DNA from: Peptococcia bacterium
Lineage (GTDB): Bacteria; Bacillota; Peptococcia; DRI-13; DTU073
Assembly (NCBI GenBank): GCA_050951605.1
Contig: JBMNJJ010000002.1
Location: 494,661 to 558,660 of the forward strand
DNA: 64,000 nt
Direction of reading: 5' to 3'
The position numbers were made by a program, and so were the translations under genes. The notes beneath the pieces were generated by a model. The model worked only from the letters and a program-made list of their open reading frames with translations, had not been told where the DNA came from and did not search any database. Each line of letters begins with the position of its first letter. Position 1 is the first letter of the stretch. This document shows positions 7,420-8,774 of the stretch, piece after piece.

Positions 7420-8774
7420 AGAAGATTGCAGTATTAGGTGCGGGTAGTTGGGGGACTGCTTTATCCTTAGTCTTAGTTAGAAAAGGGTATCAGGTTCATC
7501 TTTGGGGAAGAAATCAAGAAAAGGTTGTTCAAATAAATTTACTTAAAGAAAACTTACCCTATTTACCTGGGGTTTTATTACCTGAAAATTTGCAAGTAAC
7601 AGCGAATTTAGAAGAAGCTCTTGCTGATAAAAAATATATTGTCTTAGCGGTGCCTTCAAGAAGGATTAGGGGATTATGTAAAAGTATTATAGATAAAATT
7701 AGTAAAGATAAAATCATAATTAATGCAGCTAAAGGAATTGAGCTGGAGACATTAAAAAGGATGAGTGATGTTATTGAGGAAGAATTAGCTCCAGTAGGTC
7801 CTGCCGTTGCTATTATTTCAGGACCGAGTCATGCTGAAGAGGTAGGTAGGGGAATCCCCACGGCACTTGTTATTGGTTCAAAAAATAGTAAAGTAGCAAA
7901 AGAAGTGCAAGACCTTTTTATGTCCCCTAATTTTAGAGTGTATACTAATTCTGATTTAATTGGGATGGAATATGGGGCAGCTTTAAAAAATGTTATTGCT
8001 TTGGGTGTGGGTATCGCTACCGGGGTTGGTCTTGGTGATAATGCTAAAGCAGCTTTAATTACCAGAGGTTTAACGGAAATAGCTCGTTTGGGTGTTGCTG
8101 CCGGAGCTAACCCTCTAACTTTTGCAGGACTTACCGGTATTGGTGACTTAGTTGTAACGTGTGCTAGTGAGTATAGCAGGAATAGGCGAGCAGGGATACA
8201 AATTGGGAAAGGGATTCCTTTAAAACATGTTTTGCAGCAAATTAATATGGCTGTAGAGGGTGTACCTGCTACACAAGCTGCATGTCAGCTCGCCGGGAAA
8301 TATAAGGTTCCTATGCCTATTTGTGAAGAAATATATGCTGTACTTTTTAGAAATAAAGATGTGCATGAGGCTAGTAATGCTTTAATGATGCGTGATAGAA
8401 AAGATGAAGTAGAGGGAATTATGTCTCAAAGGCAGGTTGAAGATAGTAATAAGGATACTACTAAAAAGAGTAGTGCTAAGAGCGGCAAAAGCAGTAAGAG
8501 TAGCACGAGCAGTACAAAGGATAATAAAAAGAGTAGTGCTAAGAGCAGTAAGAGCGCTACTAAAAAGAGTAGTGCTAAGAGTGATAAAGGCAGTAAGAGT
8601 AGCACGAGCAGTACAAAGGATAATAAAAAGAGTAGTGCTAAGAGCAGTAAGAGCGCTACTAAAAAAAGTAGTGCTAAGAGTGATAAAAGCAGTAAGAGTA
8701 GCACGAGCAGTATAAAGGATACTACTAAAAAGAGTAGTGCTAAGAGTAGTAGCAAAAGCAAGAAAACTAAATAA
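7416..8774 (+). CDS. gpsA: NAD(P)H-dependent glycerol-3-phosphate dehydrogenase with ~115-aa Ser/Lys-rich repeat tail
   Basis: GAGSWGTAL Rossmann motif and full GpsA core to ..[10 protein letters not shown]. The ORF then continues in frame through the S/K repeat to TAA at 8772-8774. Confidence 0.9.
   Translation: [452 protein letters not shown]
8455..8760. repeat. 99-bp (33-codon) tandem repeat, about 3 copies, with a 33/66-bp sub-period
   Basis: ctaaaaagagtagtgctaaga recurs at 8461, 8560 and 8659 (period 99) and again at 8725. Copies differ by only a few substitutions. Confidence 0.85.

Follow-up and report, generated by a model that had tools for sequence, protein, structure and literature searches.

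Why does the gene for a textbook-soluble enzyme run on, past the point at which its family ends, into more than a hundred codons dominated by serine and lysine? We sought to answer this question for gpsA in a 64,000-nucleotide stretch of a Peptococcia bacterium genome (GenBank assembly GCA_050951605.1, contig JBMNJJ010000002.1, forward-strand positions 494,661 to 558,660), which we refer to as the window and whose positions are counted below from its first letter. GpsA supplies glycerol-3-phosphate to the acyltransferase PlsY, a transfer that is treated as simple diffusion. Judged by its sequence, the window protein is a genuine GpsA by every family test except length, and its C-terminal tail is a genuine part of the enzyme, in frame with the catalytic core. 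The gene is divided as follows.

7416..8774, forward strand: gpsA, complete coding sequence including tail and stop codon, 452 residues (list of open reading frames (ORFs), domain models)
7416..8414, forward strand: canonical GpsA catalytic core, residues 1-333 (NF000941, Pfam, alignment, AlphaFold2)
8415..8450, forward strand: linker, residues 334-345, acidic to neutral, weak helix in the model, partly conserved in the clade as GLMFQKRF or GLMSQKRF
8451..8771, forward strand: Ser/Lys-rich polycationic tail, residues 346-452 (107 residues), predicted to be disordered (composition, AlphaFold2, codon usage)
8458..8751, forward strand: 99-bp (33-codon) tandem array, 2.9 copies, with sub-units of 63+36 bp (TRF tandem-repeat search, 21-mer search, self-match)

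The core was matched by the NCBIfam equivalog model NF000941 (336 positions) over residues 1-333 with 450 bits against a cutoff of 423, and Pfam placed PF01210 (E = 2.4e-52) at residues 3-160 and PF07479 (E = 1.4e-52) at residues 180-319. The Rossmann GxGxxG motif reads GAGSWG (residues 8-13), and all 83 alignment columns that are invariant across 29 homologues are kept in the window protein. Among these invariant residues are K106, G107, K191, N192, D244, T248, R255 and N256, whose catalytic roles we assume from general knowledge of the family. AlphaFold2, run on the 29-sequence alignment, modelled the core with block-mean confidence scores (pLDDT) mostly of 83-96. Canonical GpsAs are ~330-345 residues long and end a few residues after the LMxRxxKxE helix, and in this the 452-residue window protein departs from the family, since its conserved LMMRDRKDE (residues 323-331) is followed by 121 more codons without a stop. 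The solved bacterial GpsAs 1z82 (335 residues) and 3k96 (356 residues) end 2-4 residues past the position matching residues 329-331 of the query, and 116 residues of the window protein lie past the end of the NF000941 model. Because both the model and the structures stop at the end of the core, the extension amounts to ~116 residues. The initial annotation of this DNA, which was made from the sequence alone, had placed the end of the core where the family normally stops and had let the frame run on for about 115 codons. NF000941, the solved structures and 150 representative homologues agree with the former, and the in-frame extension measured here agrees with the latter. Set beside the canonical enzyme (NF000941; 1Z82 of Thermotoga maritima and 3K96 of Coxiella burnetii), the window GpsA shares the full core, the invariant residues and the adjacency to plsY, and differs by ~116 extra C-terminal residues of disordered Ser/Lys repeats.

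Residues 334-452 comprise 44 Ser, 34 Lys, 12 Thr, 8 Ala and 7 Asp (37% Ser and 29% Lys), with a net charge of +27. The tail has no Pro and 7% Ala, and only 1% of its distal part is hydrophobic. AlphaFold2 returned pLDDT < 50 and no secondary structure for residues 347-448, and no helix is predicted beyond residue 346. In the DNA, TRF reported the array at 8458-8751 with a period of 99, 2.9 copies, 94% matches and a score of 512, the sole TRF array scoring at least 80 in the window. The initial annotation had listed a recurring 21-mer at 8461, 8560, 8659 and 8725. All four positions stand, the copies at 8461, 8560 and 8725 being exact and that at 8659 carrying one mismatch, and the list lacked two half-unit copies at 8524 and 8623, each also with one mismatch; these 6 matches in the window compare with 0 expected from 100 shuffles. 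The 99-bp period given there was reproduced by TRF, with the small correction that each unit is in turn composed of 63+36 bp derived from an older KKSSAKS sub-repeat. Repeat units 1 and 2 are the same but for 4 nt, and their longest identical stretch is 76 bp. We found no second Ser/Lys tract in any frame of the window, and a genome-wide habit of Ser/Lys tails was rejected, the 64 kb holding no further tract or strong tandem repeat. No Pfam or NCBIfam family matches the tail. When the tail alone was searched against 5.8 billion protein clusters, 8000 candidates shared words with it and none reached E <= 1e-3, a result that neither supports nor excludes relatives because low complexity defeats homology detection.

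The surroundings of the gene bear on whether the tail belongs to it, and comprise the following features.

5456-6775, forward strand: der (ORF list, annotation)
6781..7419, forward strand: plsY, acyl-phosphate:glycerol-3-phosphate acyltransferase, an integral membrane protein (ORF list, Pfam PF02660)
8805..8853, forward strand: intrinsic terminator, a 19-pair hairpin followed by a T run (terminator scan, cross-locus comparison)
9037..10509, forward strand: spoIVA, spore-coat morphogenetic ATPase, the conserved neighbour downstream of gpsA

The product of der is a ribosome-assembly GTPase. The order der-plsY-gpsA is the same in relatives as in the window, where the plsY stop and the gpsA start overlap by 4 nt (ATGA). 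The terminator begins 30 nt past the stop codon of the tail (8772-8774), and its sequence is kept across the clade, tail-less sister species included. We rejected the possibility that the tail is a gene of its own or a non-coding stretch: it follows the core without an intervening stop, start or ribosome-binding gap, the distance to spoIVA is steady, and the terminator follows the tail stop in every relative. The initial annotation had allowed that orthologues might carry the segment as a separate gene or as non-coding sequence; what they carry instead are in-frame basic tails ending at the same terminator. From the gpsA stop to the spoIVA start there are 201-262 nt whatever the length of the tail, the exception being a frameshifted relative (L003, below) with 407 nt to its called stop. 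Since this distance is steady, the extra length was gained within the coding region and does not come from reading through into the spacer. Three other ORFs that cover the repeat, at 8437..8715 (forward strand, KRVVLRA-type), 8382..8831 (reverse strand) and 8426..8761 (reverse strand), were set aside as by-products of a stop-free repeat; they cannot be conserved in those relatives whose tails span only 8-35 codons.

Corroboration of the tail comes from an independent ENA assembly of another sample (L002), which is 99.8-99.9% identical to the window over 7.2 kb. Across 8300-9060 the only difference is that L002 lacks exactly one 99-bp unit, a deletion that maps anywhere within the 76-bp stretch shared by units 1 and 2. 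The initial annotation had proposed recent expansion and probable copy-number instability, and a 99.8%-identical strain that lacks exactly one unit is an instance of both. If the tail were an artefact, with a mis-assembly or sequencing error hiding a real stop or frameshift or giving a wrong copy number, then the source, a metagenome assembly, would be a natural place to find it; tatC of the same window looks frameshifted, and short-read assemblers can collapse near-identical tandem units, so that the two-unit allele might be a collapse. However, the identical 452-residue product is on record on two contigs (one of these being the 271-kb JGI contig that carries the window), the tail in the independent assembly from another sample differs by one whole unit and nothing else, in-frame basic tails that end at the same terminator recur in seven more relatives, which come from different samples, and the longest identical stretch between units is judged shorter than typical reads. 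We regard an artefact as extremely improbable. The one-unit difference is either a genuine copy-number allele or, less probably, an assembler collapse, and in either case the frame and sequence of the tail are corroborated. A phase-variable contingency locus was also rejected, since the repeat periods found in the clade (99, 27 and 6 bp) are all multiples of 3 and a change in copy number, as in L002, alters length only. Scans of metagenomes and genomes for further repeat-number alleles of the window species found none and returned only L017, which is the short-tailed species again, and L010 with its 65-residue tail.

Among 7,998 homologues, a length above ~345 residues was confined to the closest ones, and about 145 of 150 representative GpsAs (50%-identity clusters) end within ~20 residues of the core. 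Eight related GpsAs fall into a single clade, that of an uncultured, spore-forming group of Clostridia, in which the tails range from 8 to 119 residues and from +6 to +27 in net charge and are barely alignable. The tail-bearing relatives, with their identity to the window GpsA, are listed here.

P0001 / L002: ~100% core identity, 86-residue tail, net charge +19, the window tail minus one 33-residue unit
P0002 / L012: 84% identity, 35-residue tail, +6, rich in Ser, Lys and Asn
L010 (metagenome-assembled genome (MAG) 'Clostridia bacterium AS05jafATM_84'): 81% identity, 65-residue tail, +17, rich in Lys, Ser, Gly and Ala
P0006 / L013: 81% identity, 32-residue tail, +6, rich in Gly, Lys and Ser
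P0004 / L014, L015, L017: 80% identity, 14-residue tail, +6, ending in KRKTTKKK
P0005 / L004: 76% identity, 64-residue tail, +22, rich in Thr, Lys, Pro and Ala, with a different repeat (TKTTKSAKS)

Neighbour-joining trees of the core made all tail-bearers monophyletic. In the sister clade P0007-P0010, which includes the MAG 'Clostridiales bacterium DTU073', the proteins end 2-12 residues past the LMMR..K.E motif and have no basic tail. Every tail-bearing lineage has its tail stop a short way ahead of the shared terminator, and no relic of tail sequence follows that stop. These comparisons indicate that the tail originated a single time, as a short basic extension at the root of a small clade, and was then resized or rewritten independently in several species. 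The tail is lineage-specific, as the initial annotation had thought might be found by alignment of orthologues, in the sense that it belongs to a clade whose sister lacks it; it is not peculiar to the window genome. One apparent tail-less relative, P0003 / L003 (88% identity), was rejected as such, since it has a +1 frameshift in a contig of 1.6x coverage and its shifted frame reads DENKAKASKSKSTGKSKDSQNKAKKSTSKSKGTS, the same tail as in L010. In that contig (ENA ERZ2647986 NODE_2566) the gpsA tail at 4020-4190 holds an in-frame TAG in addition to the frameshift, and spoIVA is broken into three ORFs at 4437-5904. We also note that L015 (JGI 3300053716 Ga0534105_00241, a 416-kb contig) is a second species of the clade from the window's own metagenome, with a GpsA 80% identical and the short KRKTTKKK tail; since the two share a metagenome, long- and short-tailed species coexist in one community.

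How such tails are made can be read from their codons and repeats. The window tail encodes Ser by AGY in all of 42 codons and Lys by AAG in 62%, where other window genes use these codons for 43% of their Ser and 28% of their Lys; purines make up 73% of the coding strand in the tail, 57% in the gpsA core and 56% in the window. This atypical codon usage shows a slippage-driven origin. Independent in-frame repeats are found in the tails of three lineages, with units of 99 bp in the window, 27 bp in L004 (3.7 copies, with sub-periods of 9 and 18 bp) and 6 bp in L010 (AGCAAG, 3.7 copies). On the simplest reading, short AAG/AGY (or ACT/AAA) seeds underwent replication slippage or unequal recombination time and again, and the units amplified became larger step by step. 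The amplification of the 99-bp unit to about three copies is the latest layer in the window species, its sister strain having two.

Whether the product of this process is under constraint is a separate matter. The gpsA cores of the clade are well diverged, with a synonymous divergence (dS) of 0.6-1.8 between the window and the other tail-bearers and of up to 2.4 among those, at a core dN/dS of 0.07-0.13. The distal tails of all lineages have 0-9% hydrophobic residues and a net charge of +0.24 to +0.37 per residue, against a background of 37% and -0.01 in the proteins of the window. In a drift simulation by substitution only (d = 0.3-0.9), hydrophobic residues rose to 12-26%, charge fell to ~+0.1 per residue and 2-6% of codons became stops, and a tail of 35-65 codons had a 5-45% chance per lineage of remaining at least 80% open. 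The comparison argues for constraint that may act on charge and disorder and not on sequence.

What, then, might the tail do? We tentatively read it as an electrostatic tether that would hold GpsA at the anionic membrane next to PlsY, a reading that we consider possible, with the odds somewhat against it. With about 34 Lys, its net charge of +27 and no hydrophobic anchor, the tail would act as a non-specific, length-tunable tether that works by avidity and keeps the otherwise soluble enzyme on the anionic inner face of the membrane, glycerol-3-phosphate then being made beside its consumer PlsY, the integral-membrane acyltransferase encoded immediately upstream. The strength of such a tether would scale with repeat number. 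What selection would then keep is charge and disorder and not sequence, and this would account for the rapid turnover of the latter. The initial annotation had suggested a tether to anionic membranes or nucleic acid, and the composition of the tail, its predicted disorder, the neighbouring plsY and the natural fusions described below make the membrane version plausible. We favour a tether because of the densely charged, flexible chain on a surface-exposed C-terminus, the overlap with plsY, the membrane-bound habit of PlsX and FakB and the existence of PlsY-GpsA fusions.

The fusion proteins (PF02660 followed by PF01210 and PF07479) account for 5 of the 150 nearest 50%-cluster representatives (P0147, P0149, P0192, P0200 and P0153) and fall in several unrelated 50%-identity clusters. 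The cluster of Lentisphaeria MBR6241060.1 has 31 members from many contigs, the full-length ones all of 583 residues, and the Mogibacterium protein MBQ6389199.1 (637 residues) is found on 6 contigs. As the fusions occur in unrelated clusters, covalent placement of GpsA at PlsY has evolved repeatedly, and by analogy they lend circumstantial support to a tether in the window species. They resemble the window locus in the order of plsY and then gpsA, and they would solve the same problem if the tether holds. They differ in that the N-terminus of GpsA is joined covalently to the membrane protein, whereas the window keeps plsY and gpsA as two ORFs, each in its own frame, and what GpsA gains is a charged tail at its C-terminus, with putative binding to the membrane. 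One of the fusions, P0153 (893 residues), has ~380 residues without assignment between its PlsY and GpsA domains.

Published systems offer partial parallels. PlsX and FakB, which feed PlsY, are peripheral proteins that bind anionic phosphatidylglycerol and not phosphatidylcholine (PMC10146087). They share with GpsA the pathway and the membrane partner and depend on that anionic lipid, but they insert amphipathic helices or hydrophobic loops into the bilayer (PMC10146087, PMC6702220), whereas the GpsA tail is essentially without hydrophobic residues or a predicted helix. The same holds against amphipathic-helix targeting sequences of the MinD, PlsX, FakB and TubY type in general: the cationic residues are present, while the hydrophobic face and the helix are absent. 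A closer likeness in mode of origin is found in exported Plasmodium proteins such as GARP, in which short Lys-rich motifs have been expanded by slippage into disordered modules, related species carry different motifs, as in the window clade, and peripheral targeting depends in its efficiency on the length of the repeat, that is on repeat number (PMC5207086). There, however, the host is a eukaryotic parasite, the target is the erythrocyte cytoskeleton or periphery and the function has been shown, whereas that of the window tail is putative. Our literature search found no paper on C-terminal extensions or a polycationic repeat tail of GpsA or on PlsY-GpsA fusions, and the remark in the initial annotation that such a tail has no described function holds for the searchable literature.

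A number of points weigh against a selected tether. The tail lacks the hydrophobic or amphipathic element that known bacterial peripheral-membrane motifs normally need, and prokaryotic Lys-rich low-complexity regions are statistically tied to DNA and RNA binding (PMC6821194). Slippage-driven codon usage could explain the composition without selection. The argument from constraint is weakened, since slippage can regenerate clean repeats, and the argument from neutral drift may lose force if the tails were short for much of their history. Among species the tail measures anything from 8 to 119 residues, and strains differ by 33, so that its length is weakly constrained. GpsA does without a tail in the sister clade and almost everywhere else. 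Finally, the window encodes a phosphatidylserine synthase-type transferase and a decarboxylase (a psd- and pssA-type pair), so that part of the membrane is probably zwitterionic phosphatidylethanolamine.

Several of these points are what would be expected if the tail were a tolerated by-product of slippage, that is an AAG/AGY-rich, microsatellite-like 3' end of gpsA that resizes in frame and whose disordered product neither helps nor harms. The atypical codons match amplification from a seed, sequence turnover is very fast across the whole range of tail lengths, near-identical strains differ by one unit, nearly all other GpsAs have no tail, and the tail has no detectable domain or homologue. 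A pure by-product would, however, have to account for an open, basic and hydrophobic-free frame retained in at least five lineages that stand dS 0.6-1.9 apart, unlike simulated drift, for three independent expansions that all led towards longer basic tails, and for the lack of truncated fossil tails, to which the single exception is the low-coverage contig with its other frameshifts. On balance we find this explanation rather doubtful. The charge of the tail would equally suit a binder of DNA, RNA or ribosomes that works like a histone-H1-type tail and gives GpsA a nucleoid or ribosome location or a moonlighting role. The 29% Lys, the net charge of +27 and the predicted disorder fit this, as do the enrichment of prokaryotic Lys-rich low-complexity regions in DNA- and RNA-binding proteins (PMC6821194), the basic C-terminal tail of TubY, which binds both DNA and membranes (PMC7762940), and the place of gpsA in one operon with der. 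The Lys-rich tails of actinobacterial HU and TopA (cited in PMC6821194) are likewise polycationic, low-complexity, built of repeats, lineage-specific and variable in length, but they are Ala/Pro/Lys-rich and borne by DNA-binding proteins, whereas the window tail is Ser/Lys-rich and sits on a metabolic dehydrogenase. When measured against H1-like tails of the HU, TopA and Hc1 type, the Lys content fits and the absence of Pro, the low Ala and the dehydrogenase host do not; the tail is Ser-rich and lacks the Ala/Pro-Lys motifs of the bacterial examples. GpsA has no activity related to nucleic acids, the TopA encoded in the window carries no such tail, and the recurrent fusion partner is PlsY and not a nucleic-acid-binding protein. 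Nucleic-acid binding is in our estimate unlikely.

A third possibility starts from the serines, with the tail either a repeat of the kind that CotH polyphosphorylates in two spore-coat proteins, the SKR regions of CotB and CotG, or an electrostatic switch in which Ser phosphorylation would cancel the Lys charge and release the enzyme. The tandem repeat with 37% Ser and 29% Lys resembles SKR regions (PMC7821199), which are also Ser/Lys-rich, tandemly repeated, predicted to be disordered and found in spore-forming Firmicutes, that of CotB being C-terminal as well. The host forms spores (spoIVA and spoIIP lie nearby, the former directly downstream of gpsA), and electrostatic switches of polybasic residues with Ser are established in eukaryotes (PMC10771482). 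Yet SKR regions are borne by coat proteins, whereas the window tail is carried by a housekeeping cytosolic enzyme, without detectable sequence homology; gpsA belongs to the der-plsY-gpsA operon, a terminator separates it from spoIVA, and the order gpsA-spoIVA is conserved in tail-less relatives too. The annotated parts of the window, which covers only 64 kb of the genome, hold no cotH (PF08757), cotG or Ser/Thr kinase gene, and Ser is not conserved, one member of the clade having a Thr/Lys/Pro tail and another a Gly/Lys one. We judge a phosphorylated or sporulation-linked repeat to be very unlikely. A more elaborate form of the tether, in which the tail is a selected, length-tunable localisation module, repeat number sets how firmly GpsA is held at the anionic membrane by PlsY, and Ser phosphorylation acts as a MARCKS-type charge switch that sets the enzyme free, for instance when sporulation begins, strikes us as quite unlikely.

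Several observations made along the way concern the locus and its family more widely. The gpsA-spoIVA spacer (8775-9036 in the window, and the same in L002-L005, L010 and L012-L015) is far better conserved than the tail, also in the tail-less sister species. Within it lie the terminator hairpin, the block CTTCTTAGTAATAAATAAT...GGACAATATATATGTATTGTTCATAAATTTTGAAGTTTGTACAGACTC, and GCTAAGGGGGGATGA, and the spacer probably serves spoIVA as its sporulation promoter and leader. The sole match in an Rfam scan of 6000-11000 was a sub-threshold miRNA model on the terminator hairpin (24 bits against a gathering score of 90), which we treat as chance. Among other GpsAs, P0117 (376 residues, NCBI source) has an internal tandem duplication of ~35 residues within the C-terminal domain, which is either real or an assembly artefact; P0178 (549 residues) is a GpsA-Maf fusion with PF02545 at residues 347-542; and P0254 (470 residues) has a C-terminal extension of 135 residues that is not of low complexity and has no Pfam match.

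Elsewhere in the window, tatC (~14446-15173) looks interrupted by a frameshift: the ORF 14446..15126 ends in an implausible Cys/Tyr/Phe-rich C-terminus, and JGI gene calls split the gene into two TatC fragments of 166 and 82 residues. It could be a pseudogene or a local assembly error. Lipid genes lie at ~25.8-28.3 kb and at 34460-35615, and comprise a FakA-like gene with DegV (FakB), a pair that implies activation of exogenous fatty acids to acyl-phosphate, and a phosphatidylserine decarboxylase beside a CDP-alcohol phosphatidyltransferase, a pair that implies synthesis of phosphatidylethanolamine. The ORF at 43641-44252 (203 residues), between genes for an EF-G-like GTPase and a metallo-beta-lactamase-fold protein, has no Pfam match at E <= 1e-5.

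What the locus encodes, a housekeeping enzyme whose disordered tail is peculiar to one clade and resized through repeats, is not categorically new biology. The locus is a bacterial example of a disordered region, conserved in charge and not in sequence, that was created and resized by in-frame slippage on an essential enzyme; if the tail has no function, it documents how much low-complexity load such an enzyme can tolerate. The natural length series (~0, 8, 30, 60, 86 and 119 residues) provides an allelic ladder on which the tether idea can be tested, and that idea in turn proposes, in testable form, that substrate is channelled where phospholipid synthesis takes its first committed step. Should the tether also prove to be switched by phosphorylation, bacteria would here have evolved metabolic channelling de novo through the expansion of a repeat, in functional convergence with the PlsY-GpsA fusions by which other lineages join the two covalently. 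Together, the polycationic tail kept in this clade and the outright fusions suggest that proximity of GpsA to PlsY may be under selection in some bacteria.

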